Below, piece after piece: positions 7,108 to 30,424 of a stretch of 32,000 nucleotides of DNA; position 1 is the first letter of the stretch, and every line of letters starts with the position of its first letter. Both the position numbers and the translations under genes were made by a program. This stretch comes from Candidatus Saccharimonadota bacterium (GTDB lineage Bacteria > Patescibacteriota > Gracilibacteria > Absconditabacterales > Absconditicoccaceae). Where the stretch lies: contig CP006913.1 in assembly GCA_000503875.1 (NCBI GenBank), forward strand, positions 1,140,001 to 1,172,000. Reading direction: 5' to 3'. The notes under the pieces were generated by a model. The model had not been told where the DNA came from. It did no database searches and saw only the letters and a program-made list of their open reading frames with translations.

Positions 7108-8601
7108 ATGCACAGCAAAGAAGAATCAGAAAAACATTTTAAAAAAATCAATTTTCTTAAATCAAAAATTGCCTCCAAAAAGGGTAAAATATGATGAGTT
7201 ACAAAAAACACAGAGAGCGATTTATATAATCTTTTCAATGAATATTCGAGCGCAATACAGGAAAAGAAAAAAGAAATTTTATGATGATTTGCAACATATC
7301 TAGAAAATAATGAATTACCCTCAGATATTTTATTCCACGCTTTATGACCAAAAAAATACTCAAATATTACACACAACAAAACATCGCCCTATAGTAAGAT
7401 GTATTATGGAGAAATTCAAATGTTATTAGATTTGGTTGATAATAAGTCAAAATATATAAATAAAAATATTATAGATATAGGTTGTGGTGATGGTATTAAA
7501 TTATATGCTATGCTTCAAGAAGCAATAAAAAACAAAAAAATAGAATGAACAGTAGACTATCTTGGTTTGGATGATAGTATTGATATGTTAAATTTTGCTA
7601 AAGATAATTTTTATAATATGTTTTACTCAAAAACAAAAAACAAAAAATGATTCCGTTATATTCAATCAGATGATATAGATCCAATAAATAAAAAAATTCG
7701 TCCCTGGTTTCAGAAATCCAGATTTCAAAATATCAATTGATTAGATAAAAAGACACCTAAAACCATGTTTTTTTTAGGGGGAACATTTTGAAATCTTGGA
7801 AATTTTCAAGAAGAGTTTCTGAAAGATATTAATAAAATGCTCCAAAAAGACGACACTTTTGTTTTGAGTTACTTTCGCGTTTTGGATAGATCTAAATTTG
7901 GTAATTTAGCAGGAGATGAATTAATAAAAAATTTTTTTGAAAGAGAAAAAAAACGCTATGAAGATCATAATGTGGTTTACCACGAAAAAGAAATAGATAT
8001 AAGATATTTTAAAAATATATTACCATGAATAGATATAAAGCAAGAAGATTTTGATATTAATATGGAACTTGATTCTGAAAATAAAATATTATATGATGTT
8101 AGAATATCCAATAGAGATATTATTTATAATGGTGAAATTGTAATGCAAAAATGAGTTCCATACAGAAGTGAATGAACAAAAATAGATGAACAAACACTGA
8201 GAGAAAATCTAAAGAAAGAAAATTTTACTAAAAATTTTGTAGAATCTTTGTATAGAACTAAAGAAACGCATGATTTTATAAATGAGTTTCTTGTTTTTAG
8301 ATGAGTAGACCCTAAAGATTGTAGCATACATATAGAATATGAAGATAAAGACAATACTTTGTATATATCACTTGAACCACTAAAACCAATCACTTTTTTT
8401 TGGGAAGAAGATGGTATAAAAAAGACAGTTACTAAAAAACCATGAGATGTAATAGTTCTCCACAAATCTAAAAGATTTAGTGATTCTGAAATGAAGGATA
8501 TAATTAAAAAAGCATGATTAACTATTGTTGATGAATTATGATGTAAAGGGGATATAGCAAATCAAGACATAATGAAGCTCCTCGTAATCAAAAAACAATA
8601 A
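7108..8601 (+). CDS. SAM-dependent methyltransferase, EgtD-like (histidine-specific methyltransferase family), with an N-terminal extension
   Basis: 497 aa when about 20 TGAs are read as Gly. SAM motif I is IIDIGCGDGIKLYAML. FFLGGTFGNLGNF resembles the EgtD LGSTIGNF motif. The C-terminal HKSKRFSDSEMKDIIKKAGL resembles the EgtD S.KF....AGF motif. Stop is TAA 8599-8601. Confidence 0.7.
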
Positions 8602-8693: not shown

Positions 8694-8761
8694 CTGTGTT
8701 TTTTGTTATATTTGGAAATGTCAAGAGGTCATTAACAATAATAACTTTAAAATACAATCAA

Positions 8762-8971
8762 ATGAAAAATCTAAATGAGAAACTAGAGCTTCTTCATCTT
8801 TGTTTGATAAAAGAAGGTGTTCCTATGGAACTTCCAAAAGTGCTTGAGCAATATCAATATGACTTTGTTAAGTTCAAAGAAATTGCTCAAAACTGTGAAT
8901 CATCAAATGACGATGTGTATATAAATGCTCTTAGAGCATTTAGAGATGCTTTGTTACAAGAAGAAAATTAA
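8762..8971 (+). CDS. Small hypothetical protein (69 aa)
   Basis: ATG-initiated MKNLNEKLELLHLCLIKEGVPMELPKVLEQYQYDFVKFKEIAQNCESSNDDVYINALRAFRDALLQEEN. The GVG-extended start at 8696 in the track would overlap the conserved leader. Confidence 0.5.
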   Translation: MKNLNEKLELLHLCLIKEGVPMELPKVLEQYQYDFVKFKEIAQNCESSNDDVYINALRAFRDALLQEEN

Positions 8972-9030
8972 AACAAAAATAAATAAACCTAAAACCGGGA
9001 ACAGGGGGTTAATACTGAACACAATGTATC

Positions 9031-9414
9031 ATGAAAAACAAACTTTTTGTTATCGAATCGGGAATAATTTTAGGGCTAACAATTATTTACCTATTGTTTC
9101 CACAAAAAAATGTTCATATGTTTTTTATAGTTCCATTCCTGCTTTTTGGTTATGTATTTGGACAATCTTTGAGTCAGGAATATTATAATCCTATAGGAAA
9201 TAAAATAACAAGTATCTTGATTATTTTTGGGTCAAGCGTACTCCTATCTGGGGTTGCTTATCTTCTTCAACGAGCAATGTTTGTAAAAAGCCTTTTTTCA
9301 GGGTATTTACTTTTCCTAGCCTCTGTTGTATGTTTAATTATTGTGATAATGTTTCTCCTTGGCAAAAACATATCACTATTAAACCAAAGAATCTATCATA
9401 ATGAATCACTATAA
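9031..9414 (+). CDS. Hypothetical integral membrane protein (127 aa, about 4 TM helices)
   Basis: Intact ORF whose length is made of strongly hydrophobic segments. Confidence 0.6.
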   Translation: MKNKLFVIESGIILGLTIIYLLFPQKNVHMFFIVPFLLFGYVFGQSLSQEYYNPIGNKITSILIIFGSSVLLSGVAYLLQRAMFVKSLFSGYLLFLASVVCLIIVIMFLLGKNISLLNQRIYHNESL

Positions 9415-9426
9415 ATACATAAAAAA

Positions 9427-9765
9427 ATGAAAAATCTATTTTTTGCTGCAAGTATTCTAGTAGTACTGGCCTCTTGCAATCCAAAAGAAAAACGTGCTTT
9501 TATCCTTGGACAGGAGAGAGGAAATGATACAACAATCATTGCGTTGAAATTTAATATGCCGAATGCATTTATTGTTTCTGTATTCACAGAATCAAGATTG
9601 TCTCCTAGCATAGAAAAATTTCCAACAAATTCTACTTACCTTCCACCAGATAAAAAGGGATTAACAGTTTATATTCCAACCACCAAAAGTGGAACAAGAT
9701 TCTTGGTTATGGTTACTGATGTAAAAAATCAGAAAACAATAATGATAGAATCAAAAACAGAGTAA
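9427..9765 (+). CDS. Hypothetical lipoprotein (112 aa)
   Basis: Signal peptide with lipobox MKNLFFAASILVVLASC (Cys17). The gene starts 13 nt after the preceding gene. Confidence 0.6.
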   Translation: MKNLFFAASILVVLASCNPKEKRAFILGQERGNDTTIIALKFNMPNAFIVSVFTESRLSPSIEKFPTNSTYLPPDKKGLTVYIPTTKSGTRFLVMVTDVKNQKTIMIESKTE

Positions 9766-9869: not shown

Positions 9870-9919
9870 CTGTTGTAATTATCTGACAACACGTTTTACT
9901 AGGTAAGTATTGATATTTA
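9870..9919 (+). promoter_or_regulatory. Conserved intergenic leader element, copy B
   Basis: The same element as 8645-8693, with the identical 26-nt core at 9882-9907 and TGTTG-N11-CAACA conserved. It lies 57 nt upstream of the ATG at 9976. Confidence 0.55.
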
Positions 9920-9975
9920 GAAGGAATTATATAATAATAAGAATGTCAATATTTATATTCTACTCTTATTTAAAA

Positions 9976-11376
9976 ATGGCTGATTTGCTTAGTTATGTTT
10001 CCAAAAATTTTCTTAGATCAGAAAAATGACAAGAAGGTTTATCTATAATAAAAAAAGACATTTTGTTAGAAGATAAAATGAAGAGATTATATACTCTTTT
10101 GAAAATAGATTTACATTGTGGAGTGAAAGACATAGAAGATATGCTTGTCAGGTGTAATGAAGAAATAAAAGTTCTGAAAATAGCTAAAGAAAAACTTCAA
10201 GAATGATACAATAGTAATATGCAACCAATTATACCAAAATATGAAGAAGTGAGAGATCTTTTATCAGATTACAGAGTTCTTCTTAATTTTCTTTGAGAAT
10301 TAAAAGGTGGTTTGTGAAAAACTTTTTTGGATCATGAAAAAATTTGAAAATTTCAGGAAATATATAGTACTTTAATTAAAAGATCAAAGGAATTAGAAGC
10401 TTTTTTTGAAAAATGGGAAAATTTAACAGTAACCAATAATGCAAAAGAAGTGATTTTATGAACTGATGAATGTGTTAAAAAAACATTAGAAAAAGAAAAA
10501 TTAGTAAATATTCAGATTCCAAGATTGGCTAAAATATTAAAAGCTATAGACGAAAAATACAAACCATTAAAATCAAATGCATATGTAAAAGACTTGTTGA
10601 AATATCTTTCTATTTGATATAATCAGAATATTGAAGTTGATTTTTATAAACAAGCAACCCAAGAAAAATGAGAAGGTTGAAGCGAAAACATATGTGAATT
10701 TAAACATAAAGAAAATATTATAGAAGAAATGTTTCTTTATCTGGAAGAGAATGGTATTAAGTCTGATGAAAAAGATGTTATAGTAGATAAAGGAAGTCCT
10801 ACGCTCTATATTTATATCAAAGAAATGAATAAAACGGTTGTAATCTCAAATCGCTACGGAATATGAACCCATATTTATAATGGAAAAGTGGATATCAAAG
10901 AAATAGAAAGCAATACAATCGACTATCTATTAGAAAAACATGACGGAAAAAGAATTAATTTTCTCTTGGAGTCTGGATGACTTGTTGCTTGGAAAAAAAG
11001 ATTTGTTGATGCTTTATGAACTGAAAAAACATCAGATGAGACAATAGATGAAATAAAAAATCATTGAGGAGAAAAACAAATAATCGAAGTTAAAAGACAT
11101 ATCCCTTTATTCGAGAGAGTAAGAGCCTTTGCGGCAGATAAGAAAAATATAAATCTAAAAACAGTAGATTGCAATAAAACATATCAAGCAATTATTACTT
11201 CTATAAAACCATGAAGAGTATATGTTTGTATAGGATGAGAAGATAATCAGGCCTTTGGGTTTTTTAAATATATAAATCAAGAAGATATTAAACATTTTTG
11301 CCCATGAGATATTATAAAAGTTATTCCAGAAAGAATATATGAGAGATATCCTATTATCTTTAGAAAAACATCATAA
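9976..11376 (+). CDS. Hypothetical protein (466 aa), no recognisable domain
   Basis: A single frame is open from ATG 9976 to TAA 11374-11376 with about 20 Gly-TGAs. It is invisible in the standard-code track. The N-terminal half looks helical. Confidence 0.7.
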
Positions 11377-13524: not shown

Positions 13525-14706
13525 ATGAAAAATATGCGAAATATTACTAAGCAAAAATTTGATACCAAGATATTTTTTTCTTTTCATAATTTTTTTTCTC
13601 AACATATTTTCAAAAACGATATTGTAGCGGTTGCTGTTTCTGGCGGTCCAGATAGCATGTTTTTGAGTTGCTTACTTTATGATTTTTTTGTTTCTCAAAA
13701 ATATAATACAAAAAATCTGATTTTTATTCATCTCAATCACGGCGTAAGAACTGAAAGTATCGAAGAAGCGAAAAATATTAAACAACGATTTACATGAACA
13801 TCATTGGAAATTATTACCAGACCAAAAACACTCAAAGCAACAGAAAATGATCTTAGAAAACGAAGGTATCAAAAGTTTTTGGATACGATGATAAAGCATT
13901 GAGCAAACAAAATTTTTCTTGGACATCATTTTGATGATCGTGTAGAAACATCACTTTTAAACTTGCTTCGTGGATGTGGAGTAGATGGATTTATAGGAAT
14001 CAAACCAATCGAACACCATCATCTTTTACATGGAAAATTAGTTGTGAGACCGTTATTATCTCTTCGTAAAACAGAAATTCTTGATACATGTAAACAACAA
14101 AATATCCCTTATGTCCAAGATATTTCCAATCAAGATATTTCCGTAAGTCAGAGAAATTATTTGAGAAATGAAATTATTCCCAAGCTTTTTTTACAAAAAT
14201 GATTTGAAAAATTATTTCAAAAACGATACCAAAAATATGATAGCCAATCTATAGAAAACCTCTTACAACCAATAACAATAAGTCTTTATCGAAAAGCAAA
14301 ATCAGCATATTATTTGATAAAAAATAGAAAAGAATGTAGCGCCCAAGATCTTCTTCGTATCTTTAAACAACTACATGCAAGCGCTGGAATTACGACCAAA
14401 ACCTTACAAGAATTTCTGCCTTTTGTACAAACAGCAAACAAAGGTCGGAAATCAATTCAAGGCGTAATAGTTATGATTGCCCATGGAAAAGTATATTTCT
14501 TCGTTGCCTCAGAACGTTTTCGAGAAAAAACTATTGATAACAAAACTCAAATTACTACCCTTCATTATAGAGGGAAAACGCGGAATAAATATTGTATTAC
14601 CGAAAAAATTCCTATTTTCCGAAGGAACTTTATTCCTGTTGTTATAAAAGGAAATAAAATTATTTCTTGGGACAAAAAATGATGGGAAAACACGACCATT
14701 TTTTAA
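13525..14706 (+). CDS. tilS: tRNA(Ile)-lysidine synthase
   Basis: PP-loop VAVAVSGGPDSMFL, then IHLNHGVR and LGHHFDDRVETSLLNLLRG. Track ORFs 13525.., 13963.. and 14314.. share one frame and are joined by 4 Gly-TGAs. Stop is TAA 14704-14706. Confidence 0.9.
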
Positions 14707-14722
14707 TCTTTTTTACTACTTC

Positions 14723-15217
14723 ATGCGAGAATATATACAACCTATTGTATTCCAAATTACGTCTACACGATCATATATAGTTATTACTATTTCAGAAAAA
14801 CGAGGACGAACGCCACGAGTCGTAGAATATATTTTTGTTATTGGTGTTTTGTATCTTATAGCATTATTCTTACTCCACAAAGTCTATCGTTTTTTTGTCC
14901 ATTCGGTTTTAAAACAAAAAGCGAATTTTTTCTTGGCATGCGATACTGTTTTATATCAATTTCAATTAGAGAGTAACGAAAATCAACAGGATATATCTTG
15001 GATTAAAGAATTATTAAAAAAAGGATCGTATGAACAATCCTATAAATTATTTTTGGAAAAAACATCATTACTTCCTTTGGAAGCAGCAGAACACTTCAAA
15101 AGAAAACTTGAGAAAACTCACACCGCATACATCAATACATCCAAAAGAAAAACTTTTTGTGGGGTATTTTTGGTACTAGTTACTTTGGGCGTTTATAAGT
15201 TATTTCTAGAAAATTAA
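14723..15217 (+). CDS. Hypothetical membrane protein (164 aa)
   Basis: Intact ORF with two hydrophobic helices (IFVIGVLYLIALFLL and the C-terminal FCGVFLVLVTLGVY). Confidence 0.55.
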   Translation: MREYIQPIVFQITSTRSYIVITISEKRGRTPRVVEYIFVIGVLYLIALFLLHKVYRFFVHSVLKQKANFFLACDTVLYQFQLESNENQQDISWIKELLKKGSYEQSYKLFLEKTSLLPLEAAEHFKRKLEKTHTAYINTSKRKTFCGVFLVLVTLGVYKLFLEN

Positions 15218-15453
15218 TTTAATAAAATAGGTGGTCTTTTTTTGGATTGCTTTCTATCAAATTGTTCTAATTCTTCAGAAATCTGATATTCATTATGATG
15301 CTTTTTTTCTGGTTTTTTTGTTCAAACTCCTATTGCACGTCAAAGCTCTTCAAGTCCCATAGAAAGGCTGAGTCCTTTTCTTGTTCCAATAGTATTTGCC
15401 AGGCTTTCTTTTTGCTTTTCAGTTTGTTGGCCTAATTGATTATTTTCGCTCAT
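15214..15453 (-). CDS. Small hypothetical protein (79 aa), host-coded
   Basis: MSENNQLGQQTEKQKESLANTIGTRKGLSLSMGLEELGRAIGVGTKKPEKK... includes two Gly-TGAs, so it uses the host code. Its stop overlaps the stop of the convergent 14723..15217 gene. Confidence 0.5.
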
Positions 15454-15512
15454 AAGTGAATAGGAGAGATAAAACTAATTCTTATATATCTTTTTTTATG
15501 AGAAAAACAAAC

Positions 15513-15546
15513 AAAAAAAAGAGTTCCAGTAAAAAACTGGAACTCT
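15513..15546 (-). terminator. Strong rho-independent terminator of the T9SS-type operon
   Basis: On the minus strand: AGAGTTCCAGT, TTTTT loop, ACTGGAACTCT, then T8. The stem is 11 bp and lies 27 nt downstream of the TAA of the 453-aa gene. Confidence 0.8.
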
Positions 15547-15573
15547 TTAATCTATTATTTCTTCTGGTACTAG

Positions 15574-16935
15574 TTATTTACTACGCCAGATTTCTTGGCC
15601 ATCTAATTTCAACCAAAGAACTTCTTTGTTTTCGTATTCGTTCTTCTTCCAAAAGATTGCATAGCGTTTTTTGTCTGCACGAAGTAATGCAATAAAAGGC
15701 ATACTTCTTTCATCTTCAGGAAGACATCCCTTTTTAATGATTTTAGCCTGTTTGGTTAAGGCACTATCTAACTCGGCATAAACATAATCAATAACGAATT
15801 TATTAAGAGGAGATTCTCCTTCTTTTTCAATTACATCCATGCGGATGTTTTCATTATCTATACATTTAAAACGATTCTTAAAAAGAGGAACACTTGTCCA
15901 ATATCTTTGGTATGCACCAAGTTGAATTTCTCCCCTGAAAGGAACAAGTTCTAATTTTTCTAATTCAATTAAAAGTTGTTCTCTAGCGGTGATTGTATCA
16001 ATAGGTGTAGGTATAACTTGTCTCGTGAGCGTATCCAATGGAATACTATCCGATTTAGGAATTGTATCCAATACAGGAACACTGTCCAGTTGTATTGAAT
16101 CAAGTTTCGGAATAAATACAGGTTTTGTTAAGCTGTAAATGTCGTATCCACCTGATCCACCAGGACGATCAGATGCAAAATAATATAGGGAGTCAGTTTG
16201 TTTCCTAACATCTATAGTATTGCATCCAGAGATGTTAATAGGATAAGGAAGCTTTTGTGGAGCTTGCCATTCCCCATCAACAAAGAGAGATCGATATACA
16301 CAAAACCATCCATCCCGGTTGGAATTAAAATATAACTCTTTTCCGTTTGGAGTAATCCAAACACCATTCTCATCAAATGATGAATTGAGTATCTCTACAG
16401 GAACTGGTTTTTCTTTTCCTGTTTGAAAGTAGATGTCATAATTACCACTACGATTGCTCGTAAAATAAAGAGAATCTCCTTTTGTAGCTATACTATTTTC
16501 ATCATAATCGGAATTGATGTAAGGAACTTCTTGTAATGATTCTATGCTAATTCCTTGTTTCCTTGGAGCCATAAACAACTTTCCTTGGTCATTGAAATAA
16601 CCTCGATAAAAAAACCAATACTTATTAGACATACCAACCAATGCTGAATTTGCATCGATATTGGCACTGCCATAACTAAGTTTCTTTACCTTACCAAAGC
16701 TAGTATCTGCCATCTGTGTATAATACACCTTCTCTGTATATTCCAGAAGTCTATCTTCACGATTATTTCTTCGTTTAGAAGTAAACAACAACATAGAATC
16801 TACAGGAAAAGGTGAATACTCTGCAGCAACCGAATTGATGTCTAGATTTTTCATAACCCAGGTTGAATCCGGTTGCTGAGCAAACCCCAAAAAAGAACAA
16901 GAAACAGAATAAATAATTATCAGTAGCTTTTTCAT
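15574..16935 (-). CDS. PD40/TolB-like beta-propeller repeat protein with an unassigned C-terminal domain (third gene of the T9SS cargo triad)
   Basis: Signal peptide MKKLLIIIYSVSCSFLGFAQQ. Repeated PD40-type motifs are LLFTSKRRN, LYFTSNRSGNYDIY, LYFNSNRDGWFCVY and YYFASDRPGGSGGYDIY. The C-terminal ~130 aa begins FRGEIQLGAYQRY. No TGA. Stop is TAA. Confidence 0.8.
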   Translation of the reverse strand: MKKLLIIIYSVSCSFLGFAQQPDSTWVMKNLDINSVAAEYSPFPVDSMLLFTSKRRNNREDRLLEYTEKVYYTQMADTSFGKVKKLSYGSANIDANSALVGMSNKYWFFYRGYFNDQGKLFMAPRKQGISIESLQEVPYINSDYDENSIATKGDSLYFTSNRSGNYDIYFQTGKEKPVPVEILNSSFDENGVWITPNGKELYFNSNRDGWFCVYRSLFVDGEWQAPQKLPYPINISGCNTIDVRKQTDSLYYFASDRPGGSGGYDIYSLTKPVFIPKLDSIQLDSVPVLDTIPKSDSIPLDTLTRQVIPTPIDTITAREQLLIELEKLELVPFRGEIQLGAYQRYWTSVPLFKNRFKCIDNENIRMDVIEKEGESPLNKFVIDYVYAELDSALTKQAKIIKKGCLPEDERSMPFIALLRADKKRYAIFWKKNEYENKEVLWLKLDGQEIWRSK

Positions 16936-16941
16936 ACGCTA

Positions 16942-17823
16942 CTATTTAGAGGATTTCGAATAAGGAAGCTTTAGCATTAAGACAACCTCATGTTTGGTAA
17001 ACGAATAACCATATACGTCACCAAATGAATAAGAGCCGCAATACCCAAATGATATATTTTGGACATTAATTCCAAAACCACCTTTTATCGTATTTGCAGA
17101 TGCATATCCTATGCTAAAAAGAATATCCTTATTGAGAATAAATTTTCCAGATACCCCATATTGTACGCTACTGAAAGTTTGTGTGATAACATATCCACTT
17201 CCCTCCAAGAACAATACATTTTCCATCAAAGTAAATCTGTACATACCACTAGCAGCATACGTAATATTAGTTTTGTTTTCAAAACTACTTACCATCCAAT
17301 CAGTTTGACTGGGAAGTAAATTATACGCAGCGATACCAACATAGTATCTATCTACTTGATTAAGTGCTAAACCGAAATTGGCATTAAACCAGTTTCCAGA
17401 TTCGGCACCCTGGAGAATAGGATCATCTATATCGTGTACTTCTACACGATCTCTCATTAATTTTAATTGGTTAAATCCGCCACTTAATCCAAACGAAAGT
17501 TTGGAACCACCAACAGGTACATGGTAAATAAAAGTAGCCTCAGCAGAAAGGTTTTGTAGTACGCCACCTTCTTGCGAAGCAATCTTAAATCCACCTGCAA
17601 CCCGTTGATTATTAAACGGTGAACTCCCCCAAAACATAAAGGATTTCGGATGATAATCATAGGCACCCATTTCTGTTTGATAGAGCGTACCCAATTTTAC
17701 CATTTCATTGTATCCGCCCAAACTTGGATTGGCTAAATATGGGTCATAGCCAGCCCCTAATTGAGCGAACCCTTTCGTTGATATAAGCACTACCAACAAA
17801 AGGAAAATTCTGATTTTTTTCAT
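16942..17823 (-). CDS. PorP/SprF-family type IX secretion system membrane protein
   Basis: 293 aa with signal peptide MKKIRIFLLLVVLISTKGFAQ. It has the N-terminal YLANPSLGGY motif, alternating beta-strand-like sequence, and a position immediately downstream of a type-B CTD cargo gene. No TGA. Stop is TAG. Confidence 0.8.
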   Translation of the reverse strand: MKKIRIFLLLVVLISTKGFAQLGAGYDPYLANPSLGGYNEMVKLGTLYQTEMGAYDYHPKSFMFWGSSPFNNQRVAGGFKIASQEGGVLQNLSAEATFIYHVPVGGSKLSFGLSGGFNQLKLMRDRVEVHDIDDPILQGAESGNWFNANFGLALNQVDRYYVGIAAYNLLPSQTDWMVSSFENKTNITYAASGMYRFTLMENVLFLEGSGYVITQTFSSVQYGVSGKFILNKDILFSIGYASANTIKGGFGINVQNISFGYCGSYSFGDVYGYSFTKHEVVLMLKLPYSKSSK

Positions 17824-17842
17824 TGTAATATATTTTTGTTGG

Positions 17843-20401
17843 TTAGTACAATATAGTTATTGTTTTCCAATATGGTTTTTCAGAACCATCTTGTTTAACA
17901 ACTTTTAAGTATAAATAAACAAGTGATCCGGAAGCAACAAGATTACCATTTTTATTCTTGGCATCCCAAATGGTCTGAGAAGGATCTGTTGATGTAAAGA
18001 TTTCGCCATCTTTGTTTTGGATAACAAGTACTATTGAGATAGCATTGTTACACAAAGAACTAAAATCCAATACGTCATTATCTCCATCTCCATTTGGAGT
18101 AACAAGATTGGGAATAGCTACACCATTTCCTGCCATAATTTCGACAGAATCTGTTGTAACACAACCATTATTATCGGTTATTTGCACATAATGCCGACCA
18201 GCTGCCAAAGAATCCGCTTCCTGAGTTGTTTGAACGGGAATACCACTCCATAAGTAAGTATGCGGTGGGGTAAAATGATCCACATATTGTACTAAGGCCG
18301 TACCATCCTCGCATTCAGGACAAGAAGTATTTTCAACTCTGAAATAAGTTCTAGGATGATCAGGTTGTTCAATAATAACCTTTTCCATAGAGATACATCC
18401 ATTATCATCGGTAACCGTTACATCATAAGACCCTGCCTTCAGTCTATCAATAATAAAACTGTTTGCGGGAGTTGTAATAGTAACCGTAGTATCAACACCT
18501 AAATAATTAGTTCCATCAAGTACTAATGTACTATTTGGTCCAGAGGTACCACCTGATACATTCACTTCAACACTTCCTCGTCCATCATAGCATAGGCTAT
18601 GGGTTGGGTTAATAGTTACTACCAAAGGGAGTGGTTGTACAAACGTAATAGTGGTATCAAAGTCACAAGTTCCATTTGAAATACGAACCAGATGATCACC
18701 AATAGGCATATCAACAAAGCTTGTAGTGTCATCAAATAACACATTTTGCGTAACTCCACCTACAGTAATATCTAGAGGAAATGCTTCCAAGTTATGAACT
18801 CTAATTATCCCTAATTCGTCGTTACACGAGATAGGAGTATTTACAAATTCAAATTGGAAATTTGCTGGATTAGTAAGTGTCCAGGTTGTGTCAAAAACAC
18901 AGCCAACACTGTCCTTAAGATGTAAGTCATAAATTCCACTACTAAGATTTGTTATAGCATTGGTATTGTTATTCATAAGTACGCCATCTTTTTTCCAGAC
19001 AAAAGAGTTTCCTCCATTACCTCCAATAACTGTTGTCGTGATACTAGCATTGGTGTATTCATAACAACCTACAGGAACAACAACATCTGTTACATGAAGT
19101 CGGGCTGGTTCATTTATTGTTACCGCTGGCGGAATAAATGTACATCCGTTTTCATCAGTAATTGTCAATGTATACGTTCCAGCAGCAAGTCCAGTAATAG
19201 AAGCAGTCGTTTGACCACTATCCCAAGAATAACTTAATTGACCAGTTCCTCCACTAAAATTGGCAGTAATAGAGCCATCATTAGCTTGGAAACAAGTCAG
19301 ATCTTTTTTAATTAGTTCTCCTTGAATAGGTGAATCAGGTTCCTTTATAATTACACTTTGATCCAAAGCACATCCTGTAGAATCTTCTACATGAATAGTA
19401 TATCTACCAGCAAATAAGTCAGTAACTGCTGCATTATTGCTAGAGAATCCACTCGGACCAGTAATTGTGTAAACAAAACCACTATAACTTCCTTCTGCAA
19501 CTGCGTTAATACGTCCCGTATTATCTCCATAACACAAAATATTTCTTTGTGTGTAGGAAATTTTTATTGGTGTAAGAACACTGTCAACCAACCAAGAATG
19601 TCGAAAACCTTTATTATCGTTTGTTACGACTTTAAAGATATTTCTCCCTGGATAAACTTCAGAAGAAAAACTTGCTACAGTATCTGCTACACTTGTTACA
19701 TACAGTGGACCAGGAAGTAATTCAACAATAGTAACCGTGTCTTCCGGGAACTGCACTTGTGCAGGTAAATTAGCAGGAACTAAAATTGGTCTTACATCAC
19801 TAATTGGCGCTGTTGCATCATAGCAAGCAGTAGAATCAATTTCGTAAGTCGTAGTAATTCCAGATAATTCATTAACAACAACAGTATCATTTCTTTGACA
19901 ACCGTTTATATCAGTAAGCGTAATAAAATACGTTCCTGAATAAAGATTATCGAAAACATTAGCTGTTTGTGTTGTTTCAATAGTAGTAGTACTATCAATC
20001 AAATTATAGGTAAACCATCCGGTTCCACCTCCAGCTGTAATAGTAATCCTCCCATTTGGCAAAGGCCAATTGGAATTAGGAACTATCGCATATGCTGCAG
20101 TGATCGCAGGAGGATTATCCAGCGTATAAGTAAATGTTTCTGTTGCCAAAAGGGCATTAGTAACAGTTACGGAATACAAAGCAGCATCCAAACCAGAAGC
20201 GACTTTCCCTGAAAGAGTTGGTATAACTATACCATTTCGTTCCCATACATACGTATAAGGAGGATTAATCAATGTAGTAGTAACGGTTATTTCACCGTCC
20301 TTACCATCATGACACTTAATGTTTTCTGTGGCAGTGATCTGTGAAAAACCAGACAGCCAAAAAAACAAAAGTACCAACGTTACAATAATTTTTTGTCTCA
20401 T
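17843..20401 (-). CDS. SprB-repeat cell-surface adhesin with a T9SS type-B sorting (gliding-motility-associated) C-terminal domain
   Basis: Signal peptide MRQKIIVTLVLLFFWLSGFSQ. About 8 repeats of ~75 aa follow the pattern C..(D/N)G.I......GG....Y.W......GL.AG.Y...(T/V)D.NGC. The C-terminus is IPNLVTPNGDGDNDVLDF...WDAKNKNGNLVASGSLVYLYLKV. No TGA in 852 codons. Stop is TAA. Confidence 0.9.
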   Translation of the reverse strand: MRQKIIVTLVLLFFWLSGFSQITATENIKCHDGKDGEITVTTTLINPPYTYVWERNGIVIPTLSGKVASGLDAALYSVTVTNALLATETFTYTLDNPPAITAAYAIVPNSNWPLPNGRITITAGGGTGWFTYNLIDSTTTIETTQTANVFDNLYSGTYFITLTDINGCQRNDTVVVNELSGITTTYEIDSTACYDATAPISDVRPILVPANLPAQVQFPEDTVTIVELLPGPLYVTSVADTVASFSSEVYPGRNIFKVVTNDNKGFRHSWLVDSVLTPIKISYTQRNILCYGDNTGRINAVAEGSYSGFVYTITGPSGFSSNNAAVTDLFAGRYTIHVEDSTGCALDQSVIIKEPDSPIQGELIKKDLTCFQANDGSITANFSGGTGQLSYSWDSGQTTASITGLAAGTYTLTITDENGCTFIPPAVTINEPARLHVTDVVVPVGCYEYTNASITTTVIGGNGGNSFVWKKDGVLMNNNTNAITNLSSGIYDLHLKDSVGCVFDTTWTLTNPANFQFEFVNTPISCNDELGIIRVHNLEAFPLDITVGGVTQNVLFDDTTSFVDMPIGDHLVRISNGTCDFDTTITFVQPLPLVVTINPTHSLCYDGRGSVEVNVSGGTSGPNSTLVLDGTNYLGVDTTVTITTPANSFIIDRLKAGSYDVTVTDDNGCISMEKVIIEQPDHPRTYFRVENTSCPECEDGTALVQYVDHFTPPHTYLWSGIPVQTTQEADSLAAGRHYVQITDNNGCVTTDSVEIMAGNGVAIPNLVTPNGDGDNDVLDFSSLCNNAISIVLVIQNKDGEIFTSTDPSQTIWDAKNKNGNLVASGSLVYLYLKVVKQDGSEKPYWKTITILY

Positions 20402-20571
20402 AAGTGGTTAATTTAATTTATATTTAATTTTTGTTTAATTTCTTTGTTAATTACCTAGCTAGATATACCCGAAAAATAAGCATTCCAGCCATCATAGTAT
20501 ATGTAGCTATTTGGCGATAAAAGTCAATACAATAATGAGAATAAATTATATAAAACAAGAAACAAATCAGA

Positions 20572-20599
20572 TTGATTTTTTTGTAAAATTTCCTATATT
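20572..20599 (+). promoter_or_regulatory. Candidate sigma70-type promoter of dnaJ
   Basis: TTGATT (20572-20577), N16, TATATT (20594-20599), 45 nt upstream of the ATG. Confidence 0.45.
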
Positions 20600-20624
20600 A
20601 TCACCTCGACAAAAAAAGTGCTAT
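20598..20624 (+). promoter_or_regulatory. Degenerate CIRCE-like inverted repeat (possible HrcA operator)
   Basis: TTATCACCT-N9-AAGTGCTAT compared with consensus TTAGCACTC-N9-GAGTGCTAA gives 13/18 matches. It overlaps the putative -10 box of dnaJ. Confidence 0.35.
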
Positions 20625-20643
20625 TTACTATTAACGTATAGAT

Positions 20644-21693
20644 ATGGATTTTGATGTAAAAAAGGATTATTACAAAATATTAGATATTCCAGAAACGGCC
20701 ACAGCGGAAGACGCAAAGAAAGCATTCAAAAAGCTTGCAGTAAAACATCACCCAGACCGCTGATGAGATAAAGCAAAATTTCAAGAGATCAACGAAGCTT
20801 ATCAAACCTTAGGAGATGAAAAAAAGAAAGCTCAATACGATGCTTATCGTAGTGGTGGCGGAGGACAAGGATGATATGATTTTGGCGGATTTGGCGGTTG
20901 ATGACAAGGATGATTTGATTTCTGAGGAGTAGATCTCGGAGATATTTTTGGAAATATGTTTGGAGGTGGATTTGGAGGACAACAAACAAGAGCAGAATCA
21001 TTTAGTGGAGAAGATATCAAAGTTGCTATAGAAATTACTTTTGAAGAATGATTTTTGGGAGTAACCAAAAAGGTCGCTTACAATAGAAAAATAAAAATGT
21101 CTGGTATTGATGAAAAAAATTGTAGCACTTGTAAAGGTCAATGAAGAGTTTCAAGAACAGTTCAAACACCTTTTGGAATGATGCAAACTCAAACTGTTTG
21201 TCCAGATTGTGGAGGTGTTGGTCACCAATATACCAAGGATGGAAAGACTATTAAATCTCCATTTGAAAATCACAAAGAAACGATTGAAGTTAAAATTCCA
21301 GAAGGAATCGATGATGGCGTTTATATAAAATTTACTGGAAAAGGACACCAATGATTAAATGGTTATGATGGTGATTTATATATCAAAATAAATATTCAGA
21401 CTTCTCCTATATATGAAAGAAGATCAGATAATTTATATATCAAAGTTCCTGTAACCATTTTTGATCTTGTGCTTGGAGCAGAAAAACAAATCACTCATCC
21501 AGAAGGAAAACTAAAAGTAAAAATCCCAAAAGCTACTCAGGTAGGAGATATGGTCAAAATATCTGGAAAATGATTTGGTAAGTGATGAATCTTTGGTAAA
21601 AAATGAGATCTTTATCTGATTCCAAAAGTAGACATCCCAAAAAAATTAAGCAAAGAAGAAGAAAAATTGTGGAAAGAATTAGCTTCGATATAG
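20644..21693 (+). CDS. dnaJ: Molecular chaperone DnaJ
   Basis: J-domain [35 protein letters not shown], with GG encoded TGA TGA at 20761-20766. A G/F-rich region is partly TGA-encoded. The zinc finger is CSTCKGQGRV...CPDCGGVG. There are 14 Gly-TGAs. Stop is TAG 21691-21693. Confidence 0.95.
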
Positions 21694-27026: not shown

Positions 27027-29411
27027 ATGGCAGACAATCTAGTTATCGTGGAGTCTCCTGCGAAATCACAAACAATCAAAAAGTTTCTTTGACCAGATTA
27101 TGAGGTGAAAGCGTCCTTCGGACACGTAGTAGATCTTCCTCAAAAATCATTGGGAATCGATATAGAAAATAATTTTCAGCCACAATACGAAGTCTCTCCT
27201 GACAAGAAAAAAGTAATTTCAGAACTTAAATCCTTAGCAAAAAATGCCAAAAAGGTATGGATCGCTACCGATGAAGACCGCGAGGGAGAAGCTATCGGAC
27301 GACACGTAGCCAACCAATTAGGATTAGATATCAAAAAGACATCAAGAATCGTATTTCACGAAATTACTAAAGATGCAATCCAACACGCTGTAGCAAATCC
27401 AAGAACATTAGATATGCATTTAGTTGATGCTCAGCAGGCAAGAAGAGTCCTCGATAGACTTGTTTGATTCGAATTGTCACCGGTGCTCCGAAGAAAAATT
27501 AAAGCAGGTCTCAGTGCCTGAAGAGTACAATCAGTTGCGGTAAGATTGATTGTTGAAAGAGAAAGAGAAATACAAAAATTCGAATCAGAATCTAGCTTTA
27601 AAGTAGTTGGATTTTTTATAGGAGATGCAAAACAACCATTCAAAGCAGAACTTTCTAAAGAATTCAAAACCCAGCCAGAAGCCCAAAGCTTCTTGGAAGA
27701 AATAAAAGCAGCATTATACAATATCTCAGATATCGAGGTGAAACCAGGTAAAAAATCACCTTCAGCTCCATTTACAACATCAACACTTCAACAAGAAGCA
27801 AGTCGTAAAATGGGATTTCCTGTTGCCAGAACCATGCAAGTTGCTCAGAAATTATACGAAGCAGGATTGATTACCTACATGAGAACTGATTCCGTAAATC
27901 TTTCTGAAACAGCAATCGCTGCGTGTCAGCAAGAAATTACAAAACTCTATGGAAAGGATTATTCCAAACCAACAAACTATGTGACCAAATCAAAAGGCTC
28001 ACAAGAAGCGCATGAATGTATCAGACCTACGCATATGGAAAATTCAGTAGCAGGAGCAGATCCTCAAGAAAAAAAACTCTATGAACTGATTTGGAAAAGA
28101 ACATTAGCTTCTCAAATGGCCCCAGCCGAAGTAGAAAAGACTAAGGCTACGATAGATATATCAACCAGTAAACTAAAATTTATCGCCACAGGAGAAGTAA
28201 TTAAATTCGAATGATTTCTCAAAGTATATATGGAATCTCATGATGACGAAGATGATCAAAATCAAGAAGGAATGTTACCAATTTTGAAAAAAGGAGAACT
28301 CTTGACGATGCAATCAATTCTTGCGGGTCAAAAATTCAAAAACCATCCACCAAGATATACAGAAGCAAGTCTGGTTAAAAAGCTTGAAGAGCTAGGAATT
28401 TGACGTCCGTCTACTTATGCACCGACAATTTCTACGATTCAAAAAAGAGGATACGTGGTGAAAGAAGATAGACCGGGGGAACAGAGATCTTTTGTCGAGA
28501 TGATCCTCAAAGCCGGACAAATTACCACAGAAACCAAAAAACAGATGACCGGTGCCGAGAAACAAAAGCTGTTCCCAACTGATATTGGGATGGTTGTTAC
28601 TGATTTTCTCGTAGAACATTTTTCTGATATTATGGATTATAACTTCACAGCAAATGTAGAAGAAGATTTCGATAAAATCGCAGAAAATCAATTACAACGA
28701 CAAGATATGATGCTCAATTTTTATGGATCATTTCATGCATCGGTTGTAGATACTATGGGAAGTGCAGAAAGACAAAGCGGTGAAAGAGAGTTGGGAATTG
28801 ATCCCGTAAGTGGTAGAAAAGTAATTGCAAGGATTGGAAGGTTTGGTCCAATGGTACAAATCGGACATCAAGACGATGAAGAAAAACCAAAATTCGCATC
28901 ACTTCCAGCAGGTAAAAATATAGAAACGGTTACGATAGAAGACGCACTCAAAATGTTTGCATTACCAAGAGTTGTTGGTATGTATGAGGGGAAAGAAATG
29001 GCTGCAGCAATAGGAAGATTCTGACCATATATCAAGCGAGCATCGGTGTTCGCATCATTGCCTCGTGACGCAGGATACGACGTTTTCACGATAACTGCTG
29101 AGCAAGCCGAAACCTTGGTAAAAGCCAAAGTTGAACAAGTTCAAAATAGAAATATCAGTGCCTTCGATTACCACGGAAAACAAATCGAGGTGCTCAAAGG
29201 TCAATACGGACCATATATTAAATTTGACAAAAATAATTTCAAAATACCAAAAGGATGAAAAGATGCAACGGATCTTACCCTCGAAGATTGTATGGCTATC
29301 ATAGGTCCTAAAGCATTATGATCAGACACACCGGCAAAATCATCTGCTAAATCAGAAAAACCAAAGAAAAAAGCACCAGTTAAAAAAGCTTCACCTAAAA
29401 AGAAGAAATAA
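27027..29411 (+). CDS. topA: DNA topoisomerase I
   Basis: Toprim domain MADNLVIVESPAKSQTIKKFLG...ATDEDREGEAIG. Also DAQQARRVLDRLVGFELSPVL, SAGRVQSVA (Gly-TGA at 27519) and the active-site region LITYMRTDS. The C-terminus is Lys-rich. Five track fragments share one frame and are joined by 8 Gly-TGAs. Stop is TAA 29409-29411. Confidence 0.95.
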
Positions 29412-30424
29412 TGTACTACCTTCGATACGAGTACCTTTCAGAAAGTTTCCCGAGATGTAATGTCTTCAAAATACGTGATAACAAGGAACTCTTGCACTAC
29501 ACGATTCATGAAGATCTTTCTAATATTGTTCAACAATCCAGAGAATATCCCAAATACGATCACTTTTTCTTGCTCGACGAAAGCAGATTTTCTTTTTTTA
29601 GATGCGATGTAAATCAACTTTTTGAGGAGGAAATCACTATTCATACGCTCAATGAACTCACCAAAGAAAAAATTAGAGAGACTAAAGACGCTCATGGAAT
29701 TTGATGAGAAGTTGTGATGAATTATGTCGATACGATATTCGTAGATGGCAAAGAAAAGAAATTTCTTATTGGTCAAAAAGGTCAGATTTTCTTTAGATTA
29801 TATATTATATTTATAGCAAAAACGAGTCTGAATTTGTTTGACTCGGTCTATGGAACAACATTGGAAAAGAAAAATATAAATCTGATTCCTCAGTCATTAT
29901 ATACCTTACTATTTTTGAGAAACAATCTCAAGAAAGATAATTTTGTACTGCTGTATATTACCGAGAGCTATGCAAAAGCAATCACCGTGAAAGACGGTTT
30001 CTATGCGGGAATTGACGTGTTAAACCTCGGTATGGGAGCACTCAAACAAATGTACAAAGACAATGGCGTTGTCCAGTATCGATACAAAGAATACCAAGCA
30101 ATAGAAGCAAACCCTCTTGCAAAAGAACTGGTAGTAGAAACTCTGGAATTTTATTCACAACTCTTTTGCAAACGATTATTCGAAAAACATCTCGGCGGTA
30201 TGGATATTATTGTTATTTCTCCTATCACCAAAAACGAGCATTTCATCGAAACCTTCAACAAAGAATATAGAAAAATGAGTAACAACTATATCGTTCCTTT
30301 CCATCATTCCAACTCTCTCAATTCTTTTGGTATAGAACGAGAACCAGAAAATATGGACAGCCTCGTCTTTGTAAATCAAGAAGAAAAGATTAGAAAATTG
30401 CTGTTGGGAGAGGAGAAAAATTAA
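29411..30424 (+). CDS. Hypothetical protein (337 aa), translationally coupled to topA
   Basis: Its ATG overlaps the topA stop (TAATG). Track ORFs 29411.. and 29714.. share one frame and are joined by TGA TGA (29702-29707). No confident family assignment. Confidence 0.65.

Follow-up and report, generated by a model that had tools for sequence, protein, structure and literature searches.

A three-gene cassette next to dnaJ, in a genome that reads TGA as glycine, does not use this codon at all, and we consider it probable that the cassette is an old capture, a self-contained type-B cargo-and-anchor module of a type IX secretion system (T9SS) that has been kept free of TGA by selection in place. 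It encodes an adhesin with a type-B C-terminal sorting domain, a β-barrel protein of the PorP/SprF family and a PD40 protein, and it occupies positions 15574–20401 of a 32,000-bp stretch of contig CP006913.1 (bases 1,140,001–1,172,000 of the genome), here called the window. Positions refer to the window unless they are given as genome positions.

The source genome (G000) is a single contig of 1,177,760 bp with 31% G+C, and public records label its close relatives Candidatus Absconditabacteria. Read with code 25 (TGA=Gly), it shows dense coding, and 31.7% of all its glycine codons are TGA. One gene for tRNA-Gly(UCA) is present (genome positions 1,080,583–1,080,656). Searches for prfB, encoding release factor 2 (RF2), gave no match above the curated cut-off in G000 and its relatives G006 and G007, only an RF1-like match below it. 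The use of TGA differs strongly between sister species, amounting to 23% versus 42% of the glycine codons in the genes that they have in common.

Exclusion of glycine-TGA from the cassette

The cassette consists of the following genes:

17843..20401, minus strand: adhesin gene, 852 aa; Sec signal peptide, SprB repeats, C-terminal type-B T9SS sorting domain (CHU_C); 68 GGN, 0 TGA
16942..17823, minus strand: PorP/SprF-family β-barrel gene, 293 aa; 34 GGN, 0 TGA; TAG stop 6 nt before the PD40 gene
15574..16935, minus strand: PD40 protein gene, 453 aa; 24 GGN, 0 TGA

A preliminary description of this DNA, made from its letters alone, had reported three minus-strand open reading frames (ORFs) of 852, 293 and 453 codons without TGA, and its coordinates and counts were confirmed, including the gaps of 19 nt between the adhesin and PorP genes and of 6 nt between the PorP and PD40 genes. 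All three ORFs are unchanged between code 11 and code 25 and thus contain no in-frame TGA; in G000 they end with TAA, TAG and TAA. Their glycines, described before as exclusively GGN, are encoded by 126 GGN codons (53 GGA, 50 GGT, 12 GGG and 11 GGC). At the genome-wide rate of TGA usage, the probability of finding no TGA among 126 glycines is 1.4e-21, and even with the lowest TGA rate of any long gene in the window it is 5e-8. The SprB adhesin gene contains 0, 8 and 42 TGA triplets in frames 1, 2 and 3, respectively, and since out-of-frame TGA is common in the cassette genes, the avoidance is specific for the codon. Both flanks belong to the host, as had been stated: the ORF at 15214–15453 has two in-frame TGA and dnaJ has 14, and the numbers reported for the ABC transporter gene (28), topA (8) and tilS (4) were exact as well.

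This exclusion holds in other genomes. Copies of the cassette from ten code-25 lineages together contain 996 GGN codons and 10 in-frame TGA, of which six are a relic PorP stop codon (see below), one is at the orthologous stop position of the PD40 gene (contig L055) and three follow frameshifts in broken copies, so that genuine glycine positions with TGA number 0 among 996 glycine codons. At conserved glycine sites with a changed codon between G000 and G006, we counted no TGA switch and 57 GGN-to-GGN changes in the cassette, compared with 47 and 25, respectively, in the flanking genes (Fisher p = 6e-17). The same test with the sister pair G005 and G006 gave p = 4e-16. Per comparison, the cassette shows 29–59 GGN-to-GGN changes and no TGA switch, whereas switches between GGN and TGA outnumber GGN/GGN changes in the flanks. 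Over equal divergence, flanking glycine sites switch to or from TGA at 20–45%, those of the cassette at 0%.

Genes without TGA are not restricted to the cassette. Among 802 ORFs of at least 150 aa in G000, 67 are TGA-free, compared with 12 expected, and these include EF-Tu (genome positions 28,730–29,908), enolase (139,883–141,139), purA and thyA, while EF-G (259,559–261,661; 2 TGA among 60 glycines) and PPDK (83,519–86,152; 1 of 76) are nearly so. The absence of TGA by itself therefore cannot mark a gene as foreign. The TGA fraction of a gene also drops with its GC content (rho -0.56) and with its conservation. These observations would suit ordinary translational selection, by which a very highly expressed cassette avoids TGA in the same way as EF-Tu and glycolytic genes do. 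However, in G006 EF-Tu, EF-G, enolase, PPDK and others contain 5–19 TGA (7–32%), with the cassette still at zero, and EF-Tu of G022 has 12. When orthologue pairs were restricted to those with 15 or more glycine codons in each member (139 pairs), only the three cassette genes showed no more than 3% TGA in both species. Their identity of 57–77% is low, yet they are an extreme outlier among the 61 pairs below 80% identity, for which the median TGA fraction is 43%, and their glycine codon usage is less biased than that of EF-Tu. We therefore judge translational selection to be an unlikely explanation, albeit one to be taken seriously. Low TGA fractions (4–10%) in both G000 and G006, combined with low conservation, were also seen at genome positions 1,120,376 (955 aa), 99,389 (672 aa) and 162,593 (280 aa).

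Age, ancestry and insertion site

At least 10 code-25 lineages within the genus share this insertion site of the cassette, and PorP identities are 44–92%. Syntenic copies are present in G005, G006, G007 and G008 and on the metagenome contigs L051, L055, L097 and L098, all with TGA-rich flanks. Four-fold degenerate sites differ by 0.41–0.63 between cassette copies and by 0.40–0.64 in the flanks, and the synonymous divergence of the cassette (dS 0.65–2.2) is similar to that of the flanks. A ratio of nonsynonymous to synonymous divergence (dN/dS) of 0.09–0.35 indicates that the cassette genes are maintained. The likelihood of their non-glycine codons falls within the 10th–20th percentile. Their G+C content at third codon positions (GC3) is 0.21–0.29, compared with about 0.17–0.23 in the host flanks, which leaves TGA usage as the sole compositional difference; across lineages, cassette and flank GC3 were not significantly correlated, within a narrow range.

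These data bear on the earlier interpretation of the cassette as a recent acquisition from a standard-code Bacteroidota donor, too young to have gained TGA. The absence of TGA, a Bacteroidales nearest outgroup with the same gene order, the empty sites of three congeners and the persistence of a relic TGA stop are all compatible with it. Of this interpretation, the standard-code, Bacteroidales-like ancestry stands, but the recency does not: the cassette occupies one site in at least 10 lineages, its dS equals that of the flanks, the nearest Bacteroidales PorP is only 37% identical, and flanking glycines have switched to and from TGA over the same divergence in which those of the cassette have not. 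The additional statement that the genes had not yet drifted toward host codon usage is contradicted by host-like non-glycine codons and GC3. A recent transfer is thus very improbable. As for a recent genomic island, we found no mobility genes, no tRNA target and no flanking repeats, and the cassette is not confined to one species. The preliminary description had associated an old native locus with widespread orthologues containing Gly-TGA; orthologous cassettes are indeed widespread in code-25 genomes but lack Gly-TGA, an outcome that it had not foreseen.

Apart from the codon contrast itself, nothing speaks for a chimeric assembly or a mis-binned Bacteroidota contig. G000 is one contig, and at least nine assemblies made independently show the same junctions. 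In addition, a bioreactor metagenome of another study contains a 51.7-kb contig that is collinear with 14987–21684 of the window and bridges both junctions. The chimera that the preliminary description had allowed for is therefore next to impossible. Two copies are split, reflecting either decay or assembly error: the adhesin gene of G008 by a frameshift (L026 3537–6084; 377 + 427 codons) and the PD40 gene of G005 (L028 7816–8971; 131 + 260 codons).

Outside of this genus, the search for PorP/SprF pointed to Bacteroidota. The protein is present in four of eight other species of the genus, in none of the 32 further genera searched in the family and class, and in none of 400 genomes sampled across the phylum. 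The closest relatives outside are from Bacteroidales (Paludibacteraceae and UBA1754; 37% identity), whose loci show the same order and domain architectures of adhesin, PorP and PD40 genes, and the wider PorP family is dominated by Bacteroidota-type proteins. The PorP tree unites all copies from small-genome bacteria in a single clade (100/99), with a Bacteroidales clade as sister (92/80). The homology search and phylogeny that had been suggested for naming the donor clade thus bear out the earlier view that gene families and their order are of Bacteroidota type.

A further trace of this ancestry is found at the end of the PorP gene. In several code-25 genomes, it still ends at a TGA overlapping the next start codon (ATGA), as in standard-code copies, which under code 25 is read through for 2–6 codons until the next TAA or TAG is reached. 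In G000 and other lineages, earlier TAA or TAG stops have arisen independently at different positions. The relic TGA stop is thus a fossil of a genome in which TGA terminated translation. Taken together, there is good evidence from sequence comparison that the cassette descends from a standard-code, Bacteroidales-like ancestor. Another presumed hallmark, a glutamine following the signal peptide cleavage site as a habit of Bacteroidota, proved weak: many TGA-rich native secreted proteins have signal peptides ending in AQ, and 42 of 200 signal-like N-termini of G000 show this glutamine, TGA-rich genes included. We therefore dropped it as a marker.

The surroundings of the cassette comprise:

20402..20643, no strand: divergent intergenic region between the adhesin gene and dnaJ; carries the minus-strand cassette promoter
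15501..15565, no strand: inverted repeat with A and T runs on its sides, directly downstream of the PD40 gene; terminator-like
15214..15453, minus strand: small conserved host gene, 79 aa, 2 Gly-TGA; adjoins dnaJ in genomes without the cassette
20644..21693, plus strand: dnaJ, 14 Gly-TGA; right-hand host flank
13525..15217, plus strand: tilS-like PP-loop gene (4 TGA) and a 164-aa gene of unknown family; syntenic left-hand host flank

The cassette promoter is σ70-like, with TTGACT at about 20522–20527 and TATGAT at about 20491–20496 on the minus strand, and the inverted repeat at 15501–15565 looks like its terminator, judged from its sequence. An inspection of this locus in related code-25 genomes, as had been proposed before, revealed empty sites in G001, G003 and G004, and in congeners lacking the cassette about 160–400 bp separate dnaJ and the small gene. 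Since the 79-aa gene is kept in all these congeners, the divergent intergenic region between it and dnaJ is the insertion point, and the left edge of the cassette is thereby fixed. G002 (L062 582–2015) has a single gene between the small gene and dnaJ, which is PD40-like, divergent and TGA-free (477 aa, 31% identity); adhesin and PorP genes are missing from this site. A search for repeats at the cassette ends yielded only short, chance-like direct or inverted matches, and no integrase marks the ends.

The genes neighbouring the cassette are housekeeping genes, and an Rfam scan of the window gave no match. The 164-aa flank gene (14723–15217) has no TGA and 5 GGN in G000 and 3–5 TGA in orthologues of other species, so its lack of TGA here reflects small numbers. 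A cluster of short TGA-free ORFs (91, 87, 127 and 112 aa; 8696–9765), one with a lipoprotein-like start, lies between two genes of similar size (7108–8601 and 9910–11376) with 16 TGA each; no Pfam family was found for the ORFs of this cluster.

Allele exchange, a standard-code holder and related genes

The flanks and the cassette do not share one history. The flanks resolve the species tree well, and by both of them G007 and G008 are very close sisters (100/100). Yet G008 has a cassette that clusters with the one from G000 (100/99), and that of G007 forms a very long branch. Cassettes of G005 and G006 diverge by 0.50 at four-fold sites, their flanks by 0.27. Judged by these sequence comparisons, the locus behaves as hypervariable surface-antigen loci do, with alleles being replaced between species.

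A whole cassette is also present in a standard-code genome (G041, about 0.8 Mb), on a 500-kb contig and at another locus, where all neighbouring genes are readable with the standard code. Its PorP and PD40 proteins are 54–60% and its adhesin is about 44% identical to the code-25 copies. The genome has a clear prfB (485.8 bits; cut-off 370), and its PorP gene ends with TGA. Small genomes are found throughout its 40 relatives and the listed part of its phylum sample (38 of 401); PorP was found in none of the 40 relatives. Ribosomal protein L30 had no match in G041, in two of its relatives or in G000, and to our knowledge it is universally absent from bacteria of the Candidate Phyla Radiation (CPR). 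G041 thus fits another CPR lineage, and an EF-Tu tree did not settle its position. The σ70-like promoter is kept in every code-25 copy and in G041, whereas the Paludibacteraceae homologue has a Bacteroidota-type TAnnTTTG motif. Because promoter and cassette are common to both codes, the cassette has moved together with its promoter across the genetic-code boundary.

This finding raises the possibility of a standard-code reservoir, either G041-like or among unsampled Bacteroidota, from which the cassette is frequently re-imported by recombination at its conserved ends, so that all copies are too young to contain TGA. An RF2-bearing holder of cassette and promoter at 54–60% identity would be a candidate source, alleles have demonstrably been swapped and are older than the species splits, the cassette was lost from or never present in some genomes, and TGA-free phages with a possible ability to cross codes have been described (PMC10746230). 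However, only one standard-code subclade appears among about 14 sampled lineages of the clade, and the others with readable flanks are in a code-25 dnaJ/tilS context. Insertion at a single site requires flank homology, which is present in this genus only, the ends carry neither integrase nor repeats, the relatives of G041 lack PorP, and a scan of viral contigs detected no relative of the cassette. We give such a reservoir only a small chance of accounting for the data. With nearly all sampled copies in code-25 genomes and at one site, selection in place is the most economical reading.

The exclusion of TGA extends to other genes with T9SS tails. Two further TGA-free islands of G000, both outside the window, encode type-A T9SS tails and Ig-like domains: island 2 (L019, genome positions 1,085,957–1,089,592) and island 3 (L010, 391,066–392,832). 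In G005, G006 and G007 they are syntenic and far more diverged than their TGA-rich flanks (39–69% identity or no detectable match), and a word-index homology search with the island-2 protein found close kin only. The tRNA-Gly(UCA) gene is located about 5 kb from island 2, and a gene for tRNA-Gly(GCC) lies just past this island, at 1,091,079. Type-A tails occur in 51 of 81 genomes and 28 of 43 genera of the family. Over 28 loci, tail-bearing ORFs contain 16 TGA and 1180 GGN (1.3%), compared with 256 TGA and 349 GGN (42%) in their neighbours, and 24 of these 28 ORFs are without any TGA.

An exclusion this complete, 0 of 996 in the cassette and 1.3% versus 42% in the family, resembles selection against nonsense codons. 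The genes could thus be translated in a setting where UGA is a stop, namely a T9SS-bearing host cell with the standard code, after transfer of nucleic acid, or the epibiont while RF2 of its host is present, and Gly-TGA would then act as a nonsense codon. T9SS signals and the barrel need machinery that was not found in these genomes and is present in Bacteroidota, and Absconditabacteria are reported to co-vary with Bacteroidetes in mats, which fits a Bacteroidota partner (PMC8406219). However, the promoter (TTGACT...TATGAT) is unlike that of Bacteroidota, no transfer of DNA, RNA or release factors between such cells is known, and one family member has a TGA-rich tail-bearing ORF (see below). 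We regard this proposal as improbable for the cassette. A broader version, that T9SS-type cargo is kept UGA-free across the family because it is sometimes read where UGA means stop (in a Bacteroidota host cell, in an epibiont with host RF2 or within a mixed-code symbiont gene pool), is doubtful but deserves attention. If true, the reassigned codon would be no firewall for genes of T9SS-type cargo, and this class would mark the interface between recoded epibionts and standard-code partners.

Predicted function and known systems

The profile matches agree with the protein families named in the preliminary description. The adhesin matches the SprB repeat family (PF13573, 87.7 bits) and, at residues 762–838, the CHU_C domain (PF13585, 36.2 bits; cut-off 27), which is kept in 13 orthologues; its match to TIGR04131 (26.3 bits) is below the cut-off of 35. 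A signal-like N-terminus, scored by a simple rule of our own in place of a trained predictor, is kept in all orthologues. The PorP protein matches PF11751 (120.2 bits; cut-off 22.3) and, over its full length (residues 1–283), TIGR03519 (121.9 bits; cut-off 90.55). For PorP and the adhesin tail, the predicted complex reached an interface score (ipSAE) of 0.69, compared with 0.00 for the best of three controls, a value that 58 of 80 solved complexes and 2 of 110 mismatched pairs attained in a calibration that is only rough, as our own alignments were used. Partner confidence was high (predicted local distance difference test, pLDDT, of at least 83), and at least 72% of the contacts were common between runs. 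This outcome of the modelling may partly reflect resemblance to known PorP-type complexes.

The PD40 protein consists of a TolB-like β-propeller (residues 27–270), a disordered linker and a C-terminal α/β domain. It is not a member of the PorE family, whose architecture combines TPR, a WD40-like propeller, CRD and an OmpA_C-like domain, since NF052230 matches the propeller region only, with 31.8 bits (cut-off 600), and no OmpA_C domain was found in it. A Foldseek search of the PDB with the C-terminal domain gave no match at E <= 0.001. Nevertheless, the protein may work like PorE.

Based on these observations, we propose the following scenario. Three parts would make up the module: an adhesin that bears a type-B C-terminal domain, a cognate barrel of the PorP/SprF-like kind, and a periplasmic PorE-like tether that combines a TolB-like propeller with a possible peptidoglycan-binding domain. 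A single genus of the Absconditabacteria (SR1), which uses code 25, would have received it long ago, between dnaJ and the small conserved gene. Transcribed from its own σ70-type promoter, it would yield three proteins exported by Sec; the adhesin tail would dock on the barrel, and the third protein would link this complex to the wall. This would produce a variable adhesin on the cell surface, which presumably attaches to host or prey cells. In the cassette, and likewise in the genes for T9SS tails throughout the family, purifying selection would purge the GGA-to-TGA changes that every neighbouring gene undergoes frequently, and the module would so stay readable in both codes. As the cause of this selection, we favor that failed or aberrant reading of UGA may be especially costly for proteins with a sorting or anchoring signal at their extreme C-terminus, since truncated, unanchored copies would still be exported and act as decoys.

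A number of observations weigh against this scenario. First, an approximately unbiased (AU) test did not distinguish between standard-code copies inside and outside the code-25 clade, as the monophyly of the code-25 copies was not rejected (p-AU 0.17), and the transfer between the codes may have run in either direction. Second, the class of tail-bearing genes is not strictly TGA-free: the T9SS-tail ORF at L132 (G894, contig C124) has 10 TGA among its 21 glycine codons, although it may be a naturalised class member. Third, native secreted proteins of G000 can be TGA-rich, as exemplified by a 1490-aa protein with 33 TGA. Fourth, the assignment of the C-terminal domain of the PD40 protein as SPOR-like is weak, resting on a structural match to the SPOR domain of RlpA (Z 5.3, root-mean-square deviation 2.8 Å, 74 residues). 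Most importantly, searches for secretion and assembly machinery were negative. None of 81 genomes of the family yielded SprA_N, a domain of the T9SS translocon, which was readily found in a Paludibacteraceae control; GldM was not found in G000 and G005–G008, and PorV, present in that control, was not found in G000, G006 and G007. Omp85/BamA (PF01103) was detected in the control and in 7 of 14 control genomes, but not in G000, G006, G007 and G041, and G041 yielded no SprA or PorV either. The arrival and retention of the barrel and the T9SS-tailed adhesin at the surface, and their assembly without T9SS or BamA, are therefore the main weakness of any functional account. A literature search on T9SS in CPR bacteria or Absconditabacteria returned nothing relevant.

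Alternative codes are often seen as firewalls, and foreign genes are expected to naturalise by gaining the reassigned codon. The T9SS-type surface protein genes described here do the reverse, as they have remained codon-neutral over saturated divergence in a lineage with TGA=Gly, and the same cassette occurs in a bacterium for which TGA is still a stop codon. They provide a concrete and testable case of selection acting on a single reassigned codon and point to probable host-contact proteins of the uncultured Absconditabacteria. The cassette also poses a functional problem, since T9SS cargo, a PorP barrel and a PorE-like tether would have to work in cells where neither T9SS nor BamA was detected. 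For annotation, the lesson is that a TGA-free gene in a code-25 genome does not date its transfer.

The closest functional analogues are from Bacteroidota. Type-B cargo binds a cognate PorP/SprF-like barrel that serves as its shuttle or anchor, as in PorE-PorP-PG1035 of Porphyromonas gingivalis and SprF-SprB of Flavobacterium johnsoniae, and the PorP of P. gingivalis has the periplasmic PorE as a further binding partner (PMC9143113, PMC12618676). Like these systems, the cassette combines type-B cargo with its own adjacent PorP/SprF-like gene and a periplasmic propeller protein, and docking is predicted. Unlike them, it resides in small-genome code-25 hosts in which SprA, GldM, PorV and BamA were not detected, and its third protein carries a weakly SPOR-like domain in place of the OmpA_C domain of PorE.

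With regard to codon usage, TGA-free phages compatible with code 11 have been predicted for Gracilibacteria and Absconditabacteria and show that code-neutral elements exist around the latter (Liu et al. 2023, PMC10746230). Like these phages, the cassette is TGA-free material associated with code-25 hosts, legible in both codes and with evidence of standard-code contact; it has no in-frame TGA, ends with non-TGA stops in G000 and occurs in hosts of both codes, as defined for dual-code elements in that study. It differs from them in being chromosomal, syntenic and inherited both vertically and laterally, in belonging to a whole gene class, and in that its exclusion of TGA persists through saturated synonymous divergence inside code-25 genomes.

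Two further comparisons concern its mode of exchange and its codon restriction. O-antigen and capsule loci are hypervariable surface-antigen loci between conserved flanks that are exchanged by recombination, and allelic exchange of P. gingivalis surface proteins is reportedly the subject of one study. The cassette resembles O-antigen and capsule loci in its conserved flanks, in alleles that are much older than the species splits and are replaced among relatives, and in its absence from some genomes; in contrast to them, its exchange crosses a genetic-code boundary, and its alleles obey a codon taboo. The TTA/bldA-dependent genes of Streptomyces are a codon-restricted gene class, and in both cases the presence or absence of one codon marks a functional class. 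In Streptomyces a rare codon is confined to one class of genes, whereas here a common codon is missing from one.

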